NCBI GenBank assembly: GCA_934183155.1
Contig: CAKPSB010000007.1
Location: 5,768 to 69,767 of the forward strand
DNA from: an uncultured Bacilli bacterium
GTDB taxonomy: Bacteria > Bacillota_I > Bacilli_A > RF39 > UBA660
DNA: 64,000 nt
Direction: 5' to 3'
Shown: positions 14,499 through 23,725 of the stretch, in pieces
How the letters are laid out: every line of letters begins with the position of its first letter
Numbering within the stretch: the first letter of the stretch is position 1
Position numbers and translations under genes: made by a program
Notes under the pieces: model-generated
What the model was told of the DNA's origin: nothing
The model's database searches: none
The model's input: the letters and a program-made list of their open reading frames with translations, nothing else

Positions 14499-16230
14499 AA
14501 TTAATGACGTAAAAGATGTTAAAAAAATTGATTTGGATAAATTATCTATTTTATCTGATGAAGTAAGGCAAGCTATTATAAATAGAGTTAGTAAGATTGG
14601 AGGACATATAGGTCCTAATTTAGGCGTTGTTGAATTAACTGTAGCATTACATTATGTATTTAATTCGCCTTTTGATAAAATTGTTTTTGACGTTTCACAT
14701 CAATGTTATGCTCATAAAATTTTAACTGGTAGAAAAGAAGCTTTTTTAGATGATAATCATTTTAATGATGTAACTGGTTTTACTAATCCAGAAGAAAGCA
14801 AACATGATATATTTAAAATAGGTCATACATCTACTTCAATTTCTTTAGCTTTAGGTTTGGCTTTAGAAAGAGATTTAAAAAAGACAAATGAAAATGTTAT
14901 TGCGGTTATTGGTGATGGGTCTTTAACTGGTGGTGAGGCTTTAGAGGCTCTTAATTATGCTGGTGAATATAAAGGAAATTTGATTATTATTGTTAATGAT
15001 AATAATCAAAGTATTGCAGAAAATCATGGGGGTATTTACAAAAATTTAAAATTACTTAGAGAAAATAATGGAAAATGTGATAATAATTTTTTTGAAAGTT
15101 GTGGGTTTGAATATCATTATTTAGATGATGGAAATGATGTTTTAAAACTTGTTAAGTTATTTAAGAGTATTAAAAATGTTGATTATCCAGTTGTTTTGCA
15201 TATTCATACAATTAAAGGCAAGGGTTTAAAATTTGCTCAGGAGAAAAAAGAAATTTATCATTCTGGTGGTCCTTTTGATGTTGTTAGTGGGAAATATAAA
15301 TTTTTACCTAAGCAAGATGATACTGTTTTTGATAGCTTGAAAAATTTACTTGATAGTGATGATAGAGCTATAGTAGTTAATGCGGCTACACCAATGGTAC
15401 TTGGTTTTACTTGTGATAAAAGAAAAAAATATGTTGAAAGTGGGCAGTTTGTTGATGTTGGTATTGCTGAGGAAAATGCTGTTGCTATGGCTGGTGGAAT
15501 TGCTAGGGAAGGAGGAACGGCTGTTTTTGGAACGACAACTACTTTTATGCAAAGAGTTTATGATCAAGTTTCTCATGATGTTTGTTTAAATAATTTACCA
15601 GTAACTTTTCTTTTGTTAAGAGGAGGAGTTTATGGAATGAATTCGGATACTCATTTGGGTTTGTGTGATATTCAGCTTTTTGCTCATATTCCTAATTTGA
15701 TTTATGTGTCACCATCTACTAGAGGTGAGTATATAAATGCTTTGAAGTTTGCGACAAGTCAAAAAAATCATCCGGTAGGTATAAGAGTGCCTGCTAAATT
15801 TAGTGATATTAAAGATGATAAGTTTAGTCTTAGTAATAAGGTATTGTTAAAAGGCGAAGGTGTAGCTATATTTGGGGTTGGCAAAATGATTGATATGGCA
15901 ATGGCCGTTGCGACTAGATTAAAAATAGATAATATTAGTGTTACAGTTATTAATCCACTTGTTTTGTCTAATTTAGATACACCTTTACTTAATGAGCTTA
16001 AGTTAAAACATAAATTAGTTATTACTTTAGAAGATGGGGAATTATTTGGCGGTTATGGAACAAATATTGCTTCTTTTTACGGTAATGATAATATGAAAGT
16101 TTTAAATTTTGGTATTTCTAAAAAATTTCATACTGACTTTGATCCTGATGAATTGTTAGAAGAGTGTGGAATGTCTGTTTCAAATATTTGTAATGTAATT
16201 TATAAATTTTTAAATTCTAAATCTGATTGA
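14479..16230 (+). CDS. dxs: 1-deoxy-D-xylulose-5-phosphate synthase-like (transketolase family)
   Basis: DVSHQCYAHKILTGR, IGHTSTSISLALGLA, GDGSLTGGEALEALN, VNDNNQSIAEN. These DXS motifs appear in canonical order. Confidence 0.8.
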   Translation: MKMYLDKINDVKDVKKIDLDKLSILSDEVRQAIINRVSKIGGHIGPNLGVVELTVALHYVFNSPFDKIVFDVSHQCYAHKILTGRKEAFLDDNHFNDVTGFTNPEESKHDIFKIGHTSTSISLALGLALERDLKKTNENVIAVIGDGSLTGGEALEALNYAGEYKGNLIIIVNDNNQSIAENHGGIYKNLKLLRENNGKCDNNFFESCGFEYHYLDDGNDVLKLVKLFKSIKNVDYPVVLHIHTIKGKGLKFAQEKKEIYHSGGPFDVVSGKYKFLPKQDDTVFDSLKNLLDSDDRAIVVNAATPMVLGFTCDKRKKYVESGQFVDVGIAEENAVAMAGGIAREGGTAVFGTTTTFMQRVYDQVSHDVCLNNLPVTFLLLRGGVYGMNSDTHLGLCDIQLFAHIPNLIYVSPSTRGEYINALKFATSQKNHPVGIRVPAKFSDIKDDKFSLSNKVLLKGEGVAIFGVGKMIDMAMAVATRLKIDNISVTVINPLVLSNLDTPLLNELKLKHKLVITLEDGELFGGYGTNIASFYGNDNMKVLNFGISKKFHTDFDPDELLEECGMSVSNICNVIYKFLNSKSD

Positions 16231-16380
16231 TTTTAATTTACGTTTCGTTTACAGCTTAGTTTAATTTCAAATTATTTTTTTAAAATATTACCTTATACTT
16301 ACGCAAAAGCATACTTTAATTCTAATTGCTTTTACTTATTAAATTTATTATTTATTTAAATTTTATTATAATTAGATAAT

Positions 16381-16408
16381 TTGACAAAAATATTAATTTG
16401 TTTATAAT
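16381..16408 (+). promoter_or_regulatory. Promoter of the orphan gene 16437-16889
   Basis: TTGACA 16381-16386, 16-nt spacer, TATAAT 16403-16408. GGGGGA RBS before the ATG. Confidence 0.6.
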
Positions 16409-16436
16409 ATATCACTGTTTTAAGGGGGAATATTAA

Positions 16437-16889
16437 ATGTTTAAACTTATTAATAAAGCTGGTGTTGGTGTATTTGATTTAGAAAATAAAATTGCGGATG
16501 TTGCTGTTGATTATTGGGTTGATGCTATTAATAAAGCTGGTGATTTAAATAATTCTGATTTTTTACAGATAGCGGATGTTTTATCAAATGAACATATTAC
16601 TTTATCTGACAAGTCTCTTTTGAAATTTAAGTGTTTTATGAAAAAAAATATTATTTCAAAATTTCCTAAAAAAAATGATTATATGATGATTTGGACTGGT
16701 GACGGTAGAGAAATGAATGATGGAACAAGATTGATTGGTGATTTTGGTATTATTAATTGTTCTAAAAAAGCGAACATTCCTTTAGAGTCATTACCTAAGG
16801 ATATTTGTATGTGGATAAGACCTGATAGTGTTTCAGTAGAAAACTGTTTTCAATTTGATGAAATATATAGAAAAAGTAAAATTAAATAA
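16437..16889 (+). CDS. Hypothetical protein (no recognisable family)
   Basis: 150-aa ORF with its own consensus promoter, RBS and terminator. No motif recognised. Confidence 0.6.
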   Translation: MFKLINKAGVGVFDLENKIADVAVDYWVDAINKAGDLNNSDFLQIADVLSNEHITLSDKSLLKFKCFMKKNIISKFPKKNDYMMIWTGDGREMNDGTRLIGDFGIINCSKKANIPLESLPKDICMWIRPDSVSVENCFQFDEIYRKSKIK

Positions 16890-16895
16890 GTTTGT

Positions 16896-16925
16896 ATGAC
16901 TATCCATTGGATAGTCATTTTTAAT
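16896..16925 (+). terminator. Intrinsic terminator
   Basis: ATGACTATCCA / TGGATAGTCAT perfect 11-bp stem (16896-16918), followed by TTTTTAAT. Confidence 0.75.
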
Positions 16926-17017
16926 ATTGTATATTAATGTTAATATGTAATAAATTGGTTATAATATTATTTGAAGATTTTAATTATGATGATTGAAATT
17001 ATAATATTGAGGTTATT

Positions 17018-17330
17018 ATGTTTAAATTATAATCAAAATATAAGCCTGTGGAGATCAACTGCGAGCAATTAAAAAATTGTCTGATGGAATTAAGAAATAT
17101 AAAAAATAATAAGATTTATAGGGTATATGCTTTTTTCAATACTGAAGTGTTACACGTTAAAGTTAAATTAGCACGATATAAATTTGTGGAAGAAGTATAA
17201 TAATGATGGTATAATTTATTTTGTAGGTCATCTTTATAACTAATTTATGTAAATGAAGTTGATGGAATATCAAAAGATTATATAGAAGATGATGAAAAAG
17301 CGACTTATTTTGAAGTGGTTGATAGTGCAT
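17018..17330 (+). pseudogene. Heavily decayed remnant of a uvrB 5' region
   Basis: ATGTTTAAATTATAATCAAAATATAAGCCT-GTGGAGATCAAC.. aligns with the intact uvrB start ATGTTTAATTTAATGTCAAAATATATACCTAGTGGTGATCAAC.. It has a 1-nt deletion and a TAA at codon 5. The shifted frame reads GDQLRAIKKLSDGIKK (UvrB GDQP.AI..L..GI..G). The upstream TGAGGTTATT resembles the uvrB RBS region. Later colinear anchors are TATTTTGT (17217) and Y-I-E-D-D (17279). The extent beyond ~17100 is uncertain. Confidence 0.5.
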
Positions 17331-17432
17331 GATGTACAAAAGATAAAGTGTGCTAGAGATAAGTTTATAAATACAGTAATGAACACTGAATTTTAAGGTA
17401 AAAAGAAATATTTTTATGGAGTTGATAAATAT

Positions 17433-17951
17433 ATGAATAATAATGAAGTTTTAGCAAGAAATTATTCTGAAGGAAGTGTTGAATTATATAATTGTTTATT
17501 AGAACTATGGAAAAATGATTTTGAAACAATTGGATGCTGTATAGGACATAATGGCAATACTCAATATATAGGATTAAATAGAAATAATAATGATAAACTT
17601 ATAAAGTTTTTATCTTTGATTAATAAGGATGATATTGTTATTTCTTTTCTTAATAATCATATTAGTATTAAGAAGAATAAAAACAAAGATATATATAATA
17701 GTGTATTAAATTCTATAAAAAAACTAAATGAAAATGATATTGCTTCCAAGGATAAAGAAATAGAAGACGTAATTAATTTTATTGATAATAATAATTACAA
17801 ATATGCTAATATTCGCTATTATTATTATAAAGGTACATTAAAAAAATATATTAATACAAGTGATTTAGATTTAATAAATATTCTAAAAGGAAAATATAAG
17901 TATAAAGTATTAAATGAAAAATTGCCAATGTATCATTTTATAATAGATTAG
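17433..17951 (+). CDS. Hypothetical protein (no recognisable family)
   Basis: 172-aa Asn/Lys-rich ORF with a GGAG RBS, located between two uvrB 5' fragments. Confidence 0.5.
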   Translation: MNNNEVLARNYSEGSVELYNCLLELWKNDFETIGCCIGHNGNTQYIGLNRNNNDKLIKFLSLINKDDIVISFLNNHISIKKNKNKDIYNSVLNSIKKLNENDIASKDKEIEDVINFIDNNNYKYANIRYYYYKGTLKKYINTSDLDLINILKGKYKYKVLNEKLPMYHFIID

Positions 17952-18078
17952 TGGTAAATTTATGAATTCAAAAGAAAATTATAATTGTAGATTTATACCA
18001 AAAAGTGATTTTAATTTATAGTTATATTTTTAAAAATCTTAAAAAAATAACAAAAAGTTATAAAGGAGGGAGGAAAAA

Positions 18079-18387
18079 ATGTTCAAAATTCACTCAAAAT
18101 ATATGCCTAGTGGTGATCAACCGGAGGCAATAAATTCATTAGTTAAAGGAATTAAAAATGGTGAGAAGTATCAAGTTTTACTTGGAGCAACGGGGACTGG
18201 AAAAACTTTTACAATTGCAAACGTAATTGAAAAAGTGAATAAACCAACATTGCTACTTGCACATAATAAAACTTTAGCTGGGCAACTTTATGCAGAGCTT
18301 AAAGAGTTGTTTCCAGAGAATCATGTATGCTATTTTGTTTCTTATTATAGGAACGCCTCTAAAACTGCTTTATTTAATACCTTTTAG
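18079..18387 (+). pseudogene. Truncated duplicate of the uvrB 5' end (codons 1-90, then 12 unrelated codons and a stop)
   Basis: 18079-18348 aligns without gaps to uvrB 21297-21566 (about 90% identity by hand count, last ~70 nt identical). The translation carries the UvrB N-terminus with Walker [10 protein letters not shown]. Homology stops abruptly after ..VSYY. Confidence 0.9.
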
Positions 18388-18491
18388 TTTTATTTAACCC
18401 CTTAAAAATATCATAAAAAGCCTAAATAAGACTAGTTAATAAAATGTAATTTTGTGGCTGAAATTTGTATCCATTCGTGTCCACTAAAAAA
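18383..18491 (+). repeat. Left copy of the imperfect direct repeat flanking the cassette
   Basis: TTTAGTTTTATTTA (18383-18396), a ~54-nt insert, then TTTGTGGCTGAAATTTGTATCCATTCGTGTCCACTAAAAAA (18451-18491). Compare 21148-21208. Confidence 0.7.
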
Positions 18492-18555
18492 TTAATAAAT
18501 ATCAAGATAATATAATTTATAAATTAATGTTTTTAGATAAAAAGTCATATTTTAA

Positions 18556-18564
18556 TGTTATAAT
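18556..18564 (+). promoter_or_regulatory. Extended -10 element upstream of the cassette
   Basis: TGtTATAAT 27 nt upstream of the GAGGTGA RBS and the ATG at 18592. No good -35 seen. Confidence 0.45.
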
Positions 18565-18591
18565 ATAAATGTATATGTGAGGTGATAGGGT

Positions 18592-19179
18592 ATGTTAGTT
18601 ATTTTTGAAGGATTAGACAATTGCGGTAAAACTACATTAGTACAAATGATAAAAGATTATTATTTAAAATTAGGAATAGATGCAGAAATTTCTAAAGAAT
18701 TTGAAACTAATATAGGTAAGGAATTAAAGAAAATGGCAAAAGAAGGAACTTTAGATCCTATCTTAAAAGCATATCTGTTTGCAACTGATAGATATATAAG
18801 AATGAAAAATATAGATCAAGAAGATTTAAAAAATAAAATAATGTTATTTGATCGATACGTTCCGTCTGCTCTTGCTTATCGTATGGCGGAAGGTGTTGAT
18901 AAAAATTGGGTAACTAATATAAATTCAGTTTTTCCAAAAGCTGATATAGGATTTTTTATTGATATAACGCCAAATGAATCTGTTAACAGAAATACAGATG
19001 CCAAATTTAATATAAAAGCAACACCTGAGCATTTAGGAAAAGTTAGAAGTGCATATTTGTCTATTCTTGATGAAAATAATCTTATTTATATTAATGGAAT
19101 GCAACCGATTGAAAATATATTTGGTGAAGTTATTGATAAAATAGAGGAGTTTAGAAAAAAGAATGAGAGAAAATTTTAA
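18592..19179 (+). CDS. Thymidylate kinase-family (dNMP kinase-like) protein
   Basis: 195 aa. P-loop VIFEGLDNCGKTT, DRY motif LFDRYVPSALAY, Tmk-like length and LID region (NESVNRNTD). Confidence 0.75.
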   Translation: MLVIFEGLDNCGKTTLVQMIKDYYLKLGIDAEISKEFETNIGKELKKMAKEGTLDPILKAYLFATDRYIRMKNIDQEDLKNKIMLFDRYVPSALAYRMAEGVDKNWVTNINSVFPKADIGFFIDITPNESVNRNTDAKFNIKATPEHLGKVRSAYLSILDENNLIYINGMQPIENIFGEVIDKIEEFRKKNERKF

Positions 19180-19795
19180 TAATCTATTAGAAAATTTAAA
19201 AAAGTGTGAAATTTGTAAAGAAAAATTTGGATTTCAGCCTCATCCTATATTTTTAGGTAATGTTAATTCTAAAATAGTTCAAATTAGTCAGGCACCATCT
19301 GCCACTGTCCATGAGACATTAAAACCATTTACAGATCAAAGTGGAAAAAAATTAAAATATGAGTGGTATAAGATTGATGATGAAACATTTTACAATCCAG
19401 ATAATTTTTATATTGCAGCGCTTGCACATTGTTATCCTGGAAAAGATAAAAATGGTAACGATAGAATGCCACCAAAGGTTTGTTATGAAACTTGGATAAA
19501 AGAAGAACTAAAATATATAAACAATAAACTTTATATAATAATTGGTGCAAAAGCAGCAAGAGTTTTTTTTCCAAATGAAAAATTTAATGAATTGATTTTC
19601 AAAAATAATTTTATTAATGAAAAATTAGCAATTGTATTACCACATCCATCACCACTTAATATAAAGTGGTTTAAAGAGCATCCCGAATTTATGAAAAAAA
19701 GAATATTTGAAATAAGAAAAATAATAAATGAAGTATTGGAGGAAGAAAAAAATGATAGATTTGAAACAAATACAAAAAGATGTTTATCAAAATAA
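19163..19795 (+). CDS. Uracil-DNA glycosylase superfamily protein (probable 4Fe-4S type, atypical motif A)
   Basis: 210 aa. KIVQISQAPS (motif A position), KPFTDQSGKKL, LPHPSPLN (motif B). Cys15-x2-Cys18 plus Cys90 and Cys107, as in family 4/5 Fe-S UDGs. Start overlaps the upstream stop by 17 nt. Confidence 0.7.
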   Translation: MRENFNNLLENLKKCEICKEKFGFQPHPIFLGNVNSKIVQISQAPSATVHETLKPFTDQSGKKLKYEWYKIDDETFYNPDNFYIAALAHCYPGKDKNGNDRMPPKVCYETWIKEELKYINNKLYIIIGAKAARVFFPNEKFNELIFKNNFINEKLAIVLPHPSPLNIKWFKEHPEFMKKRIFEIRKIINEVLEEEKNDRFETNTKRCLSK

Positions 19796-20066
19796 GTTGG
19801 ATAAAGGTTTTAATGTTACAGATATTAATAAAGAGTTTTGTTTAACATATGGTGAAGTAGCTGAGGCATATGAAGCGTGGCGTAAGAAAAAAGATGATGT
19901 TGGAGAAGAAATAGCTGATGTTGTGATTTATCTACTAGGATTATCTGAGATTTTAAATGTTGATTTGGAAAGTGAAATTTTAAGGAAAATTAATAAAAAT
20001 AAACACAGAGAGTACAAAATAATTGACGGTGTAAATACAAGAGTTAAAGAATATGAAGAAAATTAA
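19752..20066 (+). CDS. MazG-like nucleotide pyrophosphohydrolase (small all-alpha NTP-PPase)
   Basis: 104 aa from the ATG at 19752 (GGAGGAAG RBS 19738-19745). E-x2-E ... E-E-x2-D metal motif (GEVAEAYEAW..VGEEIADVVIYLL). The track start at 19728 is less likely. Confidence 0.7.
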   Translation: MIDLKQIQKDVYQNKLDKGFNVTDINKEFCLTYGEVAEAYEAWRKKKDDVGEEIADVVIYLLGLSEILNVDLESEILRKINKNKHREYKIIDGVNTRVKEYEEN

Positions 20067-20994
20067 TATATATTTGGCTACAAAATTATATAGTTTTTTT
20101 GATAGAAAAACATCTGTAATTATGTATAATAGCATTTTAAATAGTAAAAAATTCAGAAACGATAAGATATATTTACCATTTAAGGATAGTAATATGAAGG
20201 TTAGTACAGACGGAAATGTTGCTAAAAATATATTTGAAGCAGATATAAATTCGTTAAATAATACTGATATATTTATAACAAGACTTGACGGAATGTCTTA
20301 TGATGCAGGTGTTGGATTTGAAATTGGATACTGTTTAGCTAAAAGTGTTCCTCTTTATATTTTTAATACTGATTTCTATAAAAATAAATTATTAAGTAAC
20401 TTTGAATATAAGTTATCACCTATAATTGATAAAATTGCCAATGTATTTAAATATGAATATATAAATGATAGTAAATTGGAATATGAGGATGAATTGGATT
20501 TTAATATTAATTTGTTTTCTAAATTTGTCTATGAAAAAATAAACAATACAAAAGAAAAAATATATGAATATACTGATGGCAATGAGAAATTTGACGTTTT
20601 TATAGATTTATTAGGTATGAAATATGAATGGAATAAAATAATAATTGATAAAATAACTAAAATATTAGATGAAAATAGTATTACGTATTGGATTAGTAAT
20701 AGATATTCATCAGGATATTCAGTTGATGTTGATTTGAAAAATTTAAAAAATAGTAAGATTTATTTAACATGTTATGATGAAAATGAACCAGATATAGATT
20801 CTGCTATTTTACAAGGATTTGCTTATTATAATAAATTAAATATTATTGGATATGAATCAAATCCTGTTAAATATTATGTTGAAGGAAAGCAAGAATTTGG
20901 TGTTACATTAATGTTAGAGCAGTCATGTTCTACATTAACAAAAAGTATAGATAAGAGTATAAAAGTGATAATCAATAATATAAAGCATAATTGA
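20053..20994 (+). CDS. Tandem nucleoside 2-deoxyribosyltransferase / DNPH1(Rcl)-fold protein
   Basis: 313 aa. The N-terminal half has IYLATKLYSF..IFEADINSL..DIFITRLDG..YDAGVGFEIGYCLA (NDT signature with nucleophile Glu). The C-terminal half repeats the pattern (FIDLLG..IYLTCYDENEPDIDSAILQGFAYY) with Gln in place of Glu. Confidence 0.65.
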   Translation: MKKINIYLATKLYSFFDRKTSVIMYNSILNSKKFRNDKIYLPFKDSNMKVSTDGNVAKNIFEADINSLNNTDIFITRLDGMSYDAGVGFEIGYCLAKSVPLYIFNTDFYKNKLLSNFEYKLSPIIDKIANVFKYEYINDSKLEYEDELDFNINLFSKFVYEKINNTKEKIYEYTDGNEKFDVFIDLLGMKYEWNKIIIDKITKILDENSITYWISNRYSSGYSVDVDLKNLKNSKIYLTCYDENEPDIDSAILQGFAYYNKLNIIGYESNPVKYYVEGKQEFGVTLMLEQSCSTLTKSIDKSIKVIINNIKHN

Positions 20995-21015
20995 TACCAT
21001 AATGGTATCTATTTT
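20993..21015 (+). terminator. Intrinsic terminator of the cassette
   Basis: GATACCA (20993-20999) pairs with TGGTATC (21003-21009), followed by TATTTT. Overlaps the stop codon. Confidence 0.55.
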
Positions 21016-21147
21016 AATGTAATTTAAATATTTTAGAAGAAGATAAAAGAATTTAAATTATGAAAATATTTAGAATGAACCTTGATAATTGAAATGGCTT
21101 CATTGTTTTATTGTAAAATAAGTGTTAAAATAGGTTATTAGAAAACA

Positions 21148-21208
21148 TTTAGTTTTATTTAGTAAATTTGTGGCTGACATGTGTGCCCTATGCGTGTCTA
21201 CAAAAAAA
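21148..21208 (+). repeat. Right copy of the imperfect direct repeat flanking the cassette
   Basis: TTTAGTTTTATTTAGTAAATTTGTGGCTGACATGTGTGCCCTATGCGTGTCTACAAAAAAA. The core matches 18451-18491 at about 34 of 42 positions (hand alignment). Confidence 0.7.
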
Positions 21209-21296
21209 TGACCTATCAGTTAAGTTCTAGGCCATGAATTTTTGCTGATTGGACATGAATTTGTTGGTTGATATTGGTCATGATAAGGAGGTAGTT

Positions 21297-23246
21297 ATGT
21301 TTAATTTAATGTCAAAATATATACCTAGTGGTGATCAACCAGAGGCAATAAATTCATTAGTTAAAGGAATTGGAAATGGTGAGAAGTATCAAGTTTTACT
21401 TGGAGCAACGGGGACTGGAAAAACTTTTACAATTGCAAATGTAATAGCTCAAGTTAATAAACCAACTCTAGTTTTAGCTCATAATAAAACCTTAGCAGGG
21501 CAACTTTATGCAGAGCTTAAAGAGTTGTTTCCAGAGAATCATGTATGCTATTTTGTTTCTTATTATGATTATTATCAACCAGAGGCTTATGTAGCTAAAA
21601 CAGATACTTATATTGAAAAGGATGCTTCTATTAATGATGAAATAGATGAGCTTAGACATTATGCAACGGCTAGTTTATTAGCACATAAAGATGTTATTGT
21701 TGTCGCTTCTGTTTCTTGTATTTATGGTATTGGTGAAATTGAGGATTATGAGAAAAAAGTATTGTTTTTAAGCGTTGGTGAAACGGTAGATAGAGATAAA
21801 ATTATTGAAAAATTAATTGATATGCTTTATGAAAGAAATGATATTGATTTAAAAAGAGGCTCTTTTAGGGTTAGAGGCGATGTTTTAGAAGTTGTTCCGA
21901 TAGGTCAGCACACACATGGAATTAGAGTTGAATTTTTTGGTGATGAAATTGATAGAATAAGTGAATTTGATTTAGTTACAGGGAGTTTGGTTAATGATAA
22001 AAAAACTTATACTTTGTTTCCGGCAAGTCATTTTGTTACGAGTGAGGATAAGCTTAAAATTGCTATTAAAAATATTAGAAGTGAACTTGATGAACAACTT
22101 AAAAAATTTAAAAGTGAAAATAAATTACTTGAGTATCAAAGATTGAAAGAAAGAGTTAATTATGATTTAGAGATGCTTGAAGAAACTGGCTTTTGTAGAG
22201 GTGTTGAAAATTATTCAGCGCCGCTTGCTTTGAGAAAACCTGGAGATATGCCAACTACGTTAATTGATTTTTTTGGTGATGATTTTTTGTTAGTAGTTGA
22301 TGAATCACATGTTACTTTACCACAGGTTAAAGCGATGTATAATGGTGACAGAGTTCGTAAAGAGTCGCTGGTTAATTATGGCTTTAGGCTTCCGAGTGCA
22401 CTTGATAATAGACCTTTAAAATTTAATGAATTTGAAAGTAAAATTAGACAAGCTATTTTTGTTTCGGCTACTCCTGGTGATTATGAACTTGAAAAATGTC
22501 ATCATAAGTATGTTTCACAAATTATTAGACCAACTGGGTTGCTTGATCCGGTTATTACAGTTAAATCAACAAAAGGTCAAATTGATGATTTAGTTAGTGA
22601 AATTAATAAACAAATTAATAATAATGAAAGAACATTGATTACTACTTTAACTATTAGAATGGCTGAGGAATTGTCTGGTTATTTAAAAAAACTTGATATT
22701 AAAGTGGCTTATCTTCATAATGAAGTTAAAACTTTAGAAAGAATGCAGATAATTCATGATTTAAGATGTGGTAAATATGATGTGGTTGTTGGTATTAATT
22801 TGTTACGTGAAGGTATTGATATTCCTGAAGTTAGTTTAATTGCTATTATGGATGCTGATAAGCAAGGATTTTTACGTAGTGAAAGGAGTTTATTACAGAC
22901 CATTGGTAGAGCTGCTCGTAATGCTAATGGTAGAGTTATTATGTACGCTGATGGTATGAGTCAGGCGATGAATGTGGCTATAAGTGAGACTAATCGTAGA
23001 AGAAGTATACAAATGGCTTATAATGAGAAAAATGGAATTGTTCCTAAAACAATTGTTAAAGAAATAAGAGATGTAATTTCTAATAAGTTTGAGATTAAAG
23101 ATAAAAACAAGAAGCTTTCTAAAAAAGATAAGGAAAGTTTAATGTCTGATTTAGAAAGAGAAATGAAATTAGCTGCTAAGAATCTTGATTTTGAAAGAGC
23201 TATGGAACTTAGAGATGCTTTATTTGAGTTGCAAAGTGAAGACTAG
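21297..23246 (+). CDS. uvrB: Excinuclease ABC subunit B
   Basis: AAGGAGG RBS, then the ATG at 21297 (the track start at 21249 adds 16 aa). [26 protein letters not shown], helicase motifs, C-terminal UVR domain ([16 protein letters not shown]). Confidence 0.97.
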
Positions 23247-23305: not shown

Positions 23306-23725
23306 ATGATAAAAAAAAGAATTATTAAAGTGTTTGATTGGGGTTTAAGAATAGTTAGTTATACTATTGTTTTGATGCTTATGACGCTTATTTTTAAAAA
23401 TACTCTATATATCGATAATTCTTTTTATGGTATTTGGTGTTTAGTAGCTTCGCTTTTAATCTATTTACTTAATAAAACAATTAAACCTTTTTTAATTTGG
23501 TTAACGATTCCAATTACTGGAATTACGTTGGGGTTGTTTTATCCTTTTGTTAATTTGATTATTTTGAAAATAGTTAGTTTAATTTTAGGAGATCATTTTA
23601 TTATTTATGGTGTTTGGTATGCTTTATTTGTAGCTATATGTATTTCAGTTATTAATGTTGTTTTAGATATGACTGTTTTTAAATCTTTGACATTTAAGGA
23701 GGATAAGGATGAGTCCAATAATTAA
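23306..23725 (+). CDS. YvlD-type 4-TMS membrane protein (phage holin family IV-like)
   Basis: 139 aa, four hydrophobic segments. IKPFLIWLTIPITGITLGLF..VN..IL resembles the YvlD/PF04020 pattern. Confidence 0.6.
   Translation: MIKKRIIKVFDWGLRIVSYTIVLMLMTLIFKNTLYIDNSFYGIWCLVASLLIYLLNKTIKPFLIWLTIPITGITLGLFYPFVNLIILKIVSLILGDHFIIYGVWYALFVAICISVINVVLDMTVFKSLTFKEDKDESNN

Follow-up and report, generated by a model that had tools for sequence, protein, structure and literature searches.

Several described systems resemble parts of the operon examined here. In Lactobacillus-type deoxynucleoside salvage, a nucleoside 2-deoxyribosyltransferase (NDT) exchanges bases ahead of phosphorylation, and the known NDTs are single-domain homo-oligomers. 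Uracil exclusion pairs a dUTPase with a uracil-DNA glycosylase (UDG), and dUTPase is missing from many Firmicutes and most Tenericutes while mobile elements often carry uracil-metabolism genes (PMC5122711). The mammalian DNPH1/SMUG1/DTYMK axis joins an NDT-fold enzyme, a UDG-superfamily glycosylase and a thymidylate kinase on one pyrimidine pool, that of 5-hydroxymethyl-dU (PMC10603095). Brig1 is a single-gene UDG-fold defence acting on glucosyl-hydroxymethylcytosine (PMC11078745), and Brig2 acts on thymidine-hypermodified phages and has hundreds of homologues, 274 of them in Bacillota; for 41% of the homologues a mobile element or a defence system is close by (bioRxiv 10.1101/2025.10.29.685425). 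The operon described here occupies 18592-20994 of a 64-kb stretch of contig CAKPSB010000007.1 from an uncultured Bacilli bacterium (the window) and consists of four plus-strand open reading frames (ORFs) with overlapping ends, A to D, which encode a thymidylate kinase (Tmk)-family kinase, a UDG-superfamily glycosylase, a small MazG-like protein and a tandem NDT. The reading we favour is a novel form of nucleoside salvage coupled to uracil exclusion, and not a novel type of immunity; we put at about one half the probability that the operon is a portable pyrimidine base and deoxynucleoside salvage route with built-in uracil proofing, carried as cargo on small integrative or mobilizable elements of uncultured gut Firmicutes. 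The earlier note on this DNA knew of no described system of this composition, and literature searches found neither the four-gene combination nor an NDT-Tmk-UDG linkage nor a tandem NDT family.

The operon recurs in about 25 other genomic contexts (L-numbers below denote loci from other reference genomes or metagenome contigs). The order A-B-C-D, at 80-97% protein identity, was present in L003, L005, L006, L007, L011, L013 and L125-L128. Other arrangements were UDG2-A-C-D with or without a permease (L008, L009), A-C-D-permease-UDG2 (L010, L031), UDG2-A-D-permease (L021, L033-L036), a kinase::NDT fusion followed by the permease and UDG2 (L022), and, in L015, D followed by a family-4 UDG, a deoxynucleoside kinase (dNK), Tmk and a deaminase of the CDA fold, where D is only 35% identical. 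The L018 lineage carries D on its own. The tandem NDT, Tmk-like kinase and UDG genes stay adjacent down to 35% identity of D and in at least eight gene orders, and a UDG-superfamily gene is present in every multi-gene variant. These three genes form the stable core, while MazG, a CodB-like permease, dNK and a cytidine/dCMP-type (CDA-fold) deaminase are optional partners. The census bears out the earlier proposal that the four genes are a functionally linked module, since they are neighbours in many genomes.

The optional partners other than MazG are by family salvage functions: base import, nucleoside phosphorylation and deamination. The permease gene (NCS1 family, PF02133) overlaps the D stop codon in L009, L010, L021, L022 and L033 and is truncated or frameshifted in L008 and L031; against the cytosine permease model NF008241 the CodB-like protein scored 308 bits, under the cut-off of 326. 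The L015 dNK belongs to PF01712 and lies beside the CDA-fold deaminase. In L022 (7001-8302, P0065) a 433-aa natural fusion joins a P-loop kinase (AAA_28/AAA_18) to the tandem NDT and provides independent evidence that kinase and NDT act together. An unannotated 161-aa ORF abuts the fusion gene on its upstream side.

Gene D matches the NDT family PF05014 (60.6 bits, 2e-16, cut-off 28.8) over residues 6-114 only. The catalytic set of this N-half, Tyr7, Asp64, Asp84 and Glu90, is invariant or nearly so in the family (75 matches, from metagenomes and metagenome-assembled genomes (MAGs)), and the residues align with those of NDT structures 7o62, 7m5h and 8qc0. Internal duplication was insignificant by sequence, and a second NDT fold was visible in structure only. 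The predicted whole-protein model (pLDDT 90.4, pTM 0.92) has two alpha/beta halves bridged by a long helix, and its top fold matches were NDT/PDT crystal structures. When the C-half (residues 170-313) was modelled alone (pLDDT 87.8), the top matches were 8pqt and 7o62 (TM 0.64-0.70), with NDT structures ranking first and TIR domains next. As the C-half alone also returns NDTs first, the model supports the earlier description of D as two fused NDT-fold halves. Leu253 falls opposite Glu90 in the C-half in an alignment that is weak (hhalign probability 3%, BLAST E-value 0.028), although its register agrees with the predicted strand and helix pattern. The C-half, which carries conserved acidic residues of its own, is therefore modelled as sharing the fold but lacking the nucleophile Glu, and would be non-catalytic. 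It may serve as a built-in pseudo-subunit that completes one active site, whereas the known salvage NDTs described above assemble from identical single-domain chains. D would then define a new fused pseudo-dimeric NDT family. NDTs serve as biocatalysts for nucleoside-analogue synthesis, and a single-chain two-domain NDT with one active site may be useful in the same way.

The earlier note had placed D in a pool arm, as an NDT/DNPH1-fold enzyme cleaving dNMP or dN. DNPH1 and MilB grip the 5'-phosphate through a Ser six residues before the nucleophile (S98/E104 in DNPH1, S97/E103 in MilB), a pocket that NDTs lack (PMC10603095). Gene D, aligned to a DNPH1 sequence, has Asp84 at Glu90 minus 6, and no DNPH1 chains were among its PDB sequence matches. 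With Asp84 in place of the phosphate-binding Ser, D should act on nucleosides and not on dNMPs, and its active site appears to be that of a nucleoside-type NDT. The dNMP-cleaving arm is accordingly unlikely, the full NDT catalytic set having been kept. The cassette shares with the DNPH1/SMUG1/DTYMK axis, in outline, its kinds of enzyme and differs from it in the D pocket; the importer and anabolic kinases of the cassettes suggest net salvage rather than pure sanitation. Of the sanitation role proposed earlier, a part probably stands, in that the module would partly serve nucleotide and DNA sanitation of uracil-type pyrimidines, while the defence framing attached to it is weakened.

Gene B is a member of the UDG superfamily with four Cys, as read earlier. 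It scored 77.8 bits against PF03167 (1e-21, cut-off 24.3), has motif A SQAPS and motif B HPSPLN with His161, and its Cys15, Cys18, Cys90 and Cys107 line up with the [4Fe-4S] ligands of 1ui0, a family-4 UDG from Thermus. The nearest structure is 3IKB, an uncharacterised Streptococcus UDG-fold protein (4e-16), followed by family-4 UDGs. Against the family-4 model TIGR00758, gene B reached 32.5 bits, far under the cut-off of 125.3, and SQAPS stands where the family-4 motif A reads GE(A/G)PG. The L015 glycosylase, in contrast, is a canonical family-4 UDG (155 bits against the same cut-off). The gene B family gave 965 matches, and relatives 77-82% identical to it are stand-alone chromosomal genes. 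The UDG2 family is larger (4,509 matches), with relatives 87% and 68% identical located beside the Suf operon and Ddl and within an rpsU-yqeY...rpoZ-tyrS block; such core housekeeping neighbourhoods of stand-alone relatives were seen for the UDG2 lineage. By these comparisons three unrelated UDG lineages, the B type, UDG2 and the L015 family-4 UDG, appear to have been recruited. Repeated capture of widespread, mostly stand-alone UDGs argues that the module needs ordinary uracil-type excision, with no specificity of the Brig1/Brig2 kind, and that ordinary glycosylase activity is probably what it draws on.

Gene A falls in the thymidylate-kinase family, as the earlier reading had it, with scores above the curated cut-offs of PF02223 (101.5 bits, 6e-29, cut-off 27) and of the NCBIfam dTMP-kinase equivalog TIGR00041 (104.3 bits, cut-off 83.25). 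Its translation has the P-loop G7-LDNC-G12-K13-T14-T15 and an F86-D-R-Y89 motif; it aligns full-length with solved Tmks, its closest structures, among them 3hjn (4e-15), and the motifs align with 3hjn and 2pbr. All genome relatives of at least 79% identity lie within cassettes and the next match is at 24%, so that this lineage of gene A seems to be found only in these cassettes. Gene A is disrupted in L006, L007 and L131. The cassette-bound relatives, the disrupted copies and four nearest relatives without a cassette at the locus (see below) argue that gene A is not simply the hosts' housekeeping tmk.

Gene C is a small MazG by both applicable Pfam models, PF12643 (32.6 bits, 1e-7, cut-off 27) and PF03819 (23.0 bits, 1e-4, cut-off 22), again as proposed, and it matches the pyrophosphatase family phrog_3301 at 2e-14. 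Its acidic motifs, E35-x2-E38 (E35-VA-E38) and E52-E53-x2-D56 (E53-IA-D56), align with both 4qgp and DCTPP1/RS21-C6, the nearest solved structures, and gene C had no match to a recognised dUTPase family. The pair of C and B resembles the dUTPase and UDG pair in being co-encoded on a mobile element, where such genes are known (PMC5122711), but C is MazG/DCTPP1-like and no recognised trimeric or dimeric dUTPase, and B is a divergent Fe-S UDG under the family-4 cut-off.

A salvage route can be proposed from the observed families, catalytic motifs, fold, co-occurrence and mobility of the genes, the nucleoside-type site of D and the recruitment of UDGs. What we infer for this route is which base or bases enter it, in which direction flux runs, what C acts on and that B targets uracil. 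D would move deoxyribose from an available deoxynucleoside onto a free base, giving thymidine or deoxyuridine-type nucleosides, and in many variants the free base would be imported by the co-transcribed CodB-like permease. A host deoxynucleoside kinase, cassette-encoded in one variant, would make the monophosphate and the Tmk-family kinase A the diphosphate. Because NDT, nucleoside kinases and Tmk separate U from T poorly, the route would also yield dUTP. C would clear the unwanted product by hydrolysing dUTP or a related pyrimidine dNTP, and B would remove the uracil-type base that still reached DNA. As in Lactobacillus-type salvage, the N-half of D has the NDT fold with the full catalytic set and aligns with NDT/PDT structures, and some variants also encode a kinase of the dNK family and a nucleobase permease, which is consistent with base exchange followed by phosphorylation. 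The differences are the fused D with its predicted non-catalytic half and the packaging as a compact mobile operon that always includes UDG and Tmk.

The salvage reading is favoured because the module is conserved with salvage-type variable partners and an NDT-type D site, because ordinary UDGs were recruited into an accessory, mobile module whose B, C and D have no defence match, and because the NDT of Lactococcus phage PMBT69 likewise adjoins a transporter. If it is true, mobile elements of the gut trade complete nucleotide-acquisition pathways beyond defence and resistance genes, and pyrimidine channelling creates a uracil risk that has selected a linked UDG at least three independent times. 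The cassette would also make a case for why Tmk and UDG paralogues ride mobile elements.

Several points weigh against this reading. The window variant has no permease or nucleoside kinase and must rely on host functions. Salvage genes are normally unlinked to UDG, so that this reading gives only a loose account of why all multi-gene variants contain one. Motif A of gene B appears atypical. A cassette-specific second Tmk could point to a non-canonical substrate. Gene C seems as near to DCTPP1-type enzymes as to any dUTPase, and DCTPP1-type enzymes act preferentially on modified dCTPs. Defence or toxin genes abound around some cassettes (L021, L015). Finally, gene D is disrupted or missing in L007, L011, L013 and L126-L128 and gene B is deleted in L128; such frequent decay indicates a conditional benefit, which fits defence genes as well as accessory metabolism.

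Part of this evidence bears on a two-arm system against phage or foreign DNA, in which the UDG would excise uracil or a 5-substituted pyrimidine while MazG and NDT destroy or divert the pool counterparts. We regard this as unlikely. UDG-fold single-gene defences are known in Brig1 and Brig2, and, like defence genes, the cassette is mobile, patchily distributed and frequently eroded, with some defence or toxin genes as neighbours. L021:1-13999 looks like a defence/toxin island with AIPR, RES, SocA_Panacea, DUF6941, SIR2_2 with nSTAND3 and a DprA/SLOG-like gene, and the L015 context includes a restriction-modification system. The cassette-specific kinase lineage and the nearness of C to enzymes that prefer modified dCTP also suit such a system, as do weak matches of gene A in PADLOC-DB v2 to PDC-M51B (27 bits) and VakA (26 bits), with a further one to AriA (16 bits). 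Against it, genes B, C and D had no match there; literature searches on 3IKB and on PDC-M51/VakA gave nothing relevant. The importer, deoxynucleoside kinase, dTMP-type kinase and deaminase have no obvious immune role, and D is probably a nucleoside-type NDT rather than a dNMP hydrolase. The cassette contains no sensor, no nuclease and no toxic or abortive effector; its promoter looks constitutive, and the operon is not preceded by a known leader.

The glycosylases themselves point the same way. Brig1 and Brig2 share with the cassette UDGs the UDG superfamily and a frequent location on mobile elements and AT-rich acquired DNA, and Brig2 targets thymidine-derived modifications. Compared by description, however, they are single genes, whereas a cassette UDG is always found with nucleotide-metabolism genes. 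Stand-alone genes, which for UDG2 lie in core contexts, share 68-87% identity with the cassette UDGs, a divergence of at most 13-32%, and one variant uses a canonical family-4 enzyme. With no PADLOC match for B, C and D, no sensor or effector, salvage-type partners and non-specialised UDGs, the defence framing of the earlier note is weakened. We keep beside the favoured salvage reading, at low odds, the possibility of an immune or nucleotide-policing system directed at uracil or 5-substituted-uracil DNA, in which the UDG-fold enzyme would attack the DNA of the phage and the cassette-specific kinase, MazG and tandem NDT would reroute or destroy its non-canonical pyrimidine nucleotides. That policing role is doubtful, but if true it would make the module a bacterial counterpart of the DNPH1/SMUG1/DTYMK axis spread by integrative mobilizable elements, and the first multi-gene system to join a DNA glycosylase with nucleotide-pool control.

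Another possibility considered was that the cassette protects against toxic pyrimidine analogues encountered in the gut, for example drugs of the 5-fluorouracil type or modified bases that degraded phage or dietary DNA releases. In that case NDT would remove the base of the analogue from deoxyribose, its dNTP would be hydrolysed by MazG, and UDG would cut the base out of DNA. All components are pyrimidine-centred, mobile carriage is typical of resistance cargo, and there is precedent in the excision of 5-fluorouracil and 5-hydroxymethyluracil by UDG-superfamily enzymes and in the policing of pool and DNA by DNPH1 and SMUG1 (PMC10603095). An import permease and anabolic kinases would, however, raise and not lower analogue incorporation, and the UDG types have mostly stand-alone relatives, in core contexts for UDG2, which leaves this explanation very unlikely.

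The earlier note had named a captured phage module as an alternative, and phage sequences were searched for related cassettes. A set of 2.9 million viral contigs and another of 50,697 phage records yielded neither the cassette nor a tandem-NDT gene. Scans of the viral contigs with D, B and the D alignment returned one marginal match (33% identity over 48 residues), and the phage records gave weak matches to the N-half of gene D only (27-34% identity) and no DNA match. A phage origin of the module was rejected on these searches, and the captured-module alternative finds no support in them. Like phage nucleotide-metabolism modules, the operon has PHROG matches for A (thymidylate kinase), C (pyrophosphatase) and D (NDT), and in phage PMBT69 a single-domain NDT adjoins a PnuC-like transporter (PF04973); the lack of tandem NDTs in the viral sets and the low, N-half-only identity of phage NDTs set it apart. 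In PMBT69 (L133, 53692-66111) the NDT stands between a protein of the Mom family (PF25680, 3.7e-58) and the PnuC-like transporter, with a 4Fe-4S/radical-SAM protein (PF13353) and an RtcB-type RNA ligase nearby, and most genes are annotated only as hypothetical.

A phage-captured DNA-modification module would place a non-canonical pyrimidine into DNA, with MazG removing the competing dNTP and UDG the canonical base. The pathways of 5-hydroxymethyluracil and Z-genome phages use a dedicated dNMP kinase and a dNTP pyrophosphatase, and the logic here is parallel; the PHROG matches and the cassette-specific kinase lineage also suit it. Besides the lack of relatives on viral contigs and phage records, no variant contains a hydroxymethylase or transferase as base-modifying enzyme, the UDGs come from large, mostly stand-alone families, and genome-wide base replacement by an eroding accessory cassette is implausible. 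We consider such a module barely credible.

The mobility of the operon is apparent from a shared DNA unit of about 18496-21080, from promoter to terminator, which recurs at about 90% nucleotide identity in at least five different settings; the transferred unit measures 2.6-2.8 kb. Cassette genes have 85-97% nucleotide identity between hosts whose uvrB genes have 68-74%, and the window UvrB has 68-77% protein identity to UvrB of related MAGs. By this comparison the operon is horizontally transferred, mobile and accessory. A serine recombinase of the large type, with or without a Mob_Pre relaxase, lies beside the cassette in L003, L008, L009, L015, L031 and L127, a tyrosine integrase is near it in L010, and IS3 and IS110 transposases are further neighbours. 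Elsewhere the cassette is the cargo of integrative mobilizable elements, with recombinase and relaxase adjacent, variable sites and a transfer signature. Of the ORFs next to the cassette in the window, none was recognised as encoding a recombinase or relaxase, so that this copy seems to be an immobilised remnant. The nearest four relatives judged by UvrB (uncultured Erysipelotrichaceae/Bacilli MAGs, 68-72%) have no cassette at the uvrB locus.

With recombinase and Mob_Pre genes directly beside the cassette in several elements, the module might serve the element itself, by supplying dNTPs and keeping uracil out during transfer or replication, or by countering defences based on dNTP depletion or deamination. 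A host dCTP deaminase defence would make dUTP, and MazG, UDG and salvage resynthesis would neutralise the surge. Mobile elements commonly carry dUTPases or UDG inhibitors, arguably against damage from uracil-DNA repair in transfer (PMC5122711). This explanation is quite unlikely, as the cassette persists without recombinase or relaxase in the window and several other genomes, the operon has its own promoter and terminator, and it was not found on phages or plasmids, where it would be most useful; the plasmids had distant single-domain NDTs only.

The features of the operon and its surroundings are collected in Table 1. The coordinates and overlaps of the four genes agree with those reported earlier, and both flanking signals, the extended -10 and the hairpin terminator, are present in the sequence, so that the overlapping genes bracketed by them make a single operon. 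The gene B ATG lies 17 nt ahead of the gene A stop and the gene D ATG 14 nt ahead of the gene C stop. The start of gene C, within gene B, is preceded by GGAGGAAG and gives a product of 104 aa whose homologues open with the same MIDLK. Gene B is 195 aa in most homologues, and the window copy runs about 15 codons longer, which produces a 44-nt overlap with gene C (19751-19795); elsewhere gene B stops ahead of gene C or barely within it.

Table 1. Positions in the window of the operon genes, their flanking signals and the surrounding uvrB features
Feature	Positions	Strand	Description
Extended -10 promoter element TGTTATAAT	18556-18564	+	Read directly from the sequence
Gene A	18592-19179	+	Thymidylate (dTMP) kinase-family P-loop kinase, 195 aa
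Gene B	19163-19795	+	Predicted Fe-S UDG-superfamily DNA glycosylase, 210 aa
Gene C	19752-20066	+	Predicted small MazG-like (all-alpha) NTP pyrophosphohydrolase, 104 aa
Gene D	20053-20994	+	Tandem nucleoside 2-deoxyribosyltransferase-fold protein, 313 aa
Intrinsic-terminator-like hairpin and T-tract	20993-21015	+	Operon end; GATACCA-TAA-TGGTATC then TATTTT
Truncated duplicate of the host uvrB 5' end	18069-18348	+	Ribosome-binding site and about 90 codons; left border of the inserted segment
Left junction region	18349-18495	+	Holds a copy of the ~40-nt motif, TTTGTGGCTGA...CGTGTCCAC, at 18451-18490
Right junction	21135-21210	+	Second motif-region copy, about 130 nt upstream of the uvrB start
Intact host uvrB	21297-23246	+	649 aa, complete UvrB domain architecture; context, outside the cassette

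The extended -10 is absent from the promoter-scanner list because the scanner demands a -35 hexamer, and it falls within the unit common to L003, L005, L007 and L011, which starts at about 18496. The terminator hairpin has a 7-bp stem with 3 GC pairs and a TATTTT tail and lies within the unit common to other genomes, which reaches about 21080; three terminator-like sites were found against 0.5 expected. A scan of 16200-21400 with Rfam gave no riboswitch or known leader at an E-value of 1 or below, and no paralogues of A to D were found elsewhere in the window. The DNA around the operon is core and origin-proximal, as described before, with gidA, gidB, parB ... uvrB, lgt, trxB, whiA and dnaB. 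At 23306-23725 a 139-aa Phage_holin_4_2-family membrane protein overlaps the lgt start; a protein of this family is placed between uvrB and lgt also in L006 and L038-L040, which identifies it as a core gene and not a prophage remnant.

Four species, namely the window organism and those of L004, L006 and L013, have the cassette ahead of uvrB. The duplication of the uvrB 5' end reported in the earlier note is real (18069-18348 against 21287-21566, 280 nt, 89% identity), and the duplicate matches the ResIII N-terminal part of PF04851. The operon, seen there as the cargo of an insertion that had caused the duplication, was horizontally acquired, but the duplicated fragment is host-derived and was not carried by the element. 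An element carrying a uvrB 5' fragment was rejected, as the left fragments are nearest their own host's uvrB (89% in the window, 93% in L013) and about 74% identical across hosts. Identity to L013 rises from about 75% to at least 90% at 18345-18350 and cassette-level similarity decays across the right junction; the transferred segment in these two genomes begins at the end of the uvrB fragment (about 18349) and ends at a motif (about 21160-21200).

This motif of about 40 nt (TTTGTGGCTGA...TGTG.CC...CGTGTC.AC, then an A-run) is present twice in the window, at 18451-18490 and 21167-21205, and positions 18370-18396 also resemble 21135-21161. In other cassette genomes it occurs at L004:1142, L006:4441 and L013:8334 and 10613; in the cassette-bearing genomes the motif stands 100-130 nt upstream of uvrB, and a second copy precedes the cassette. 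The relatives L037-L040, which lack the cassette, yielded no such motif ahead of uvrB, and Rfam had no match to it. Its role could be that of an operator, a leader or a site of recombination. For the uvrB duplication, simple models of att-site or Campbell integration were rejected as they do not fit the similarity boundaries. Plausibly, an old site-specific insertion at the motif was followed by exchange of the inner segment through homologous recombination.

A third, decayed uvrB 5' remnant at about 17001-17200, followed by a partial AAATTTGTGG motif at 17183, lies between dxs and the truncated uvrB duplicate (16230-18068). It is flanked by two orphan ORFs, 16437-16889 (150 aa) and 17433-17951 (172 aa), neither of which had a Pfam, NCBIfam, PADLOC or PHROG match. 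The region 16230-18068 looks like the product of serial insertions at one uvrB-proximal hotspot.

Among the mobile cassettes, L003:1-8408 contains two elements in tandem, both of which encode a serine recombinase and a Mob_Pre relaxase; in the second element the recombinase is truncated to 131 aa. The upstream element has a different cargo, consisting of a 411-aa protein without a Pfam match and ORFs of 194 and 232 aa. A conserved 93-aa ORF was located beside cassette-bearing elements in L003 (6385-6666), L008 (6474-6755), L009 (4464-4745), L126 and L127. Its copies are 36-63% identical to one another and have no family match. Where a serine recombinase is present the ORF is directly upstream of it, and it may encode a directionality factor or a regulator.

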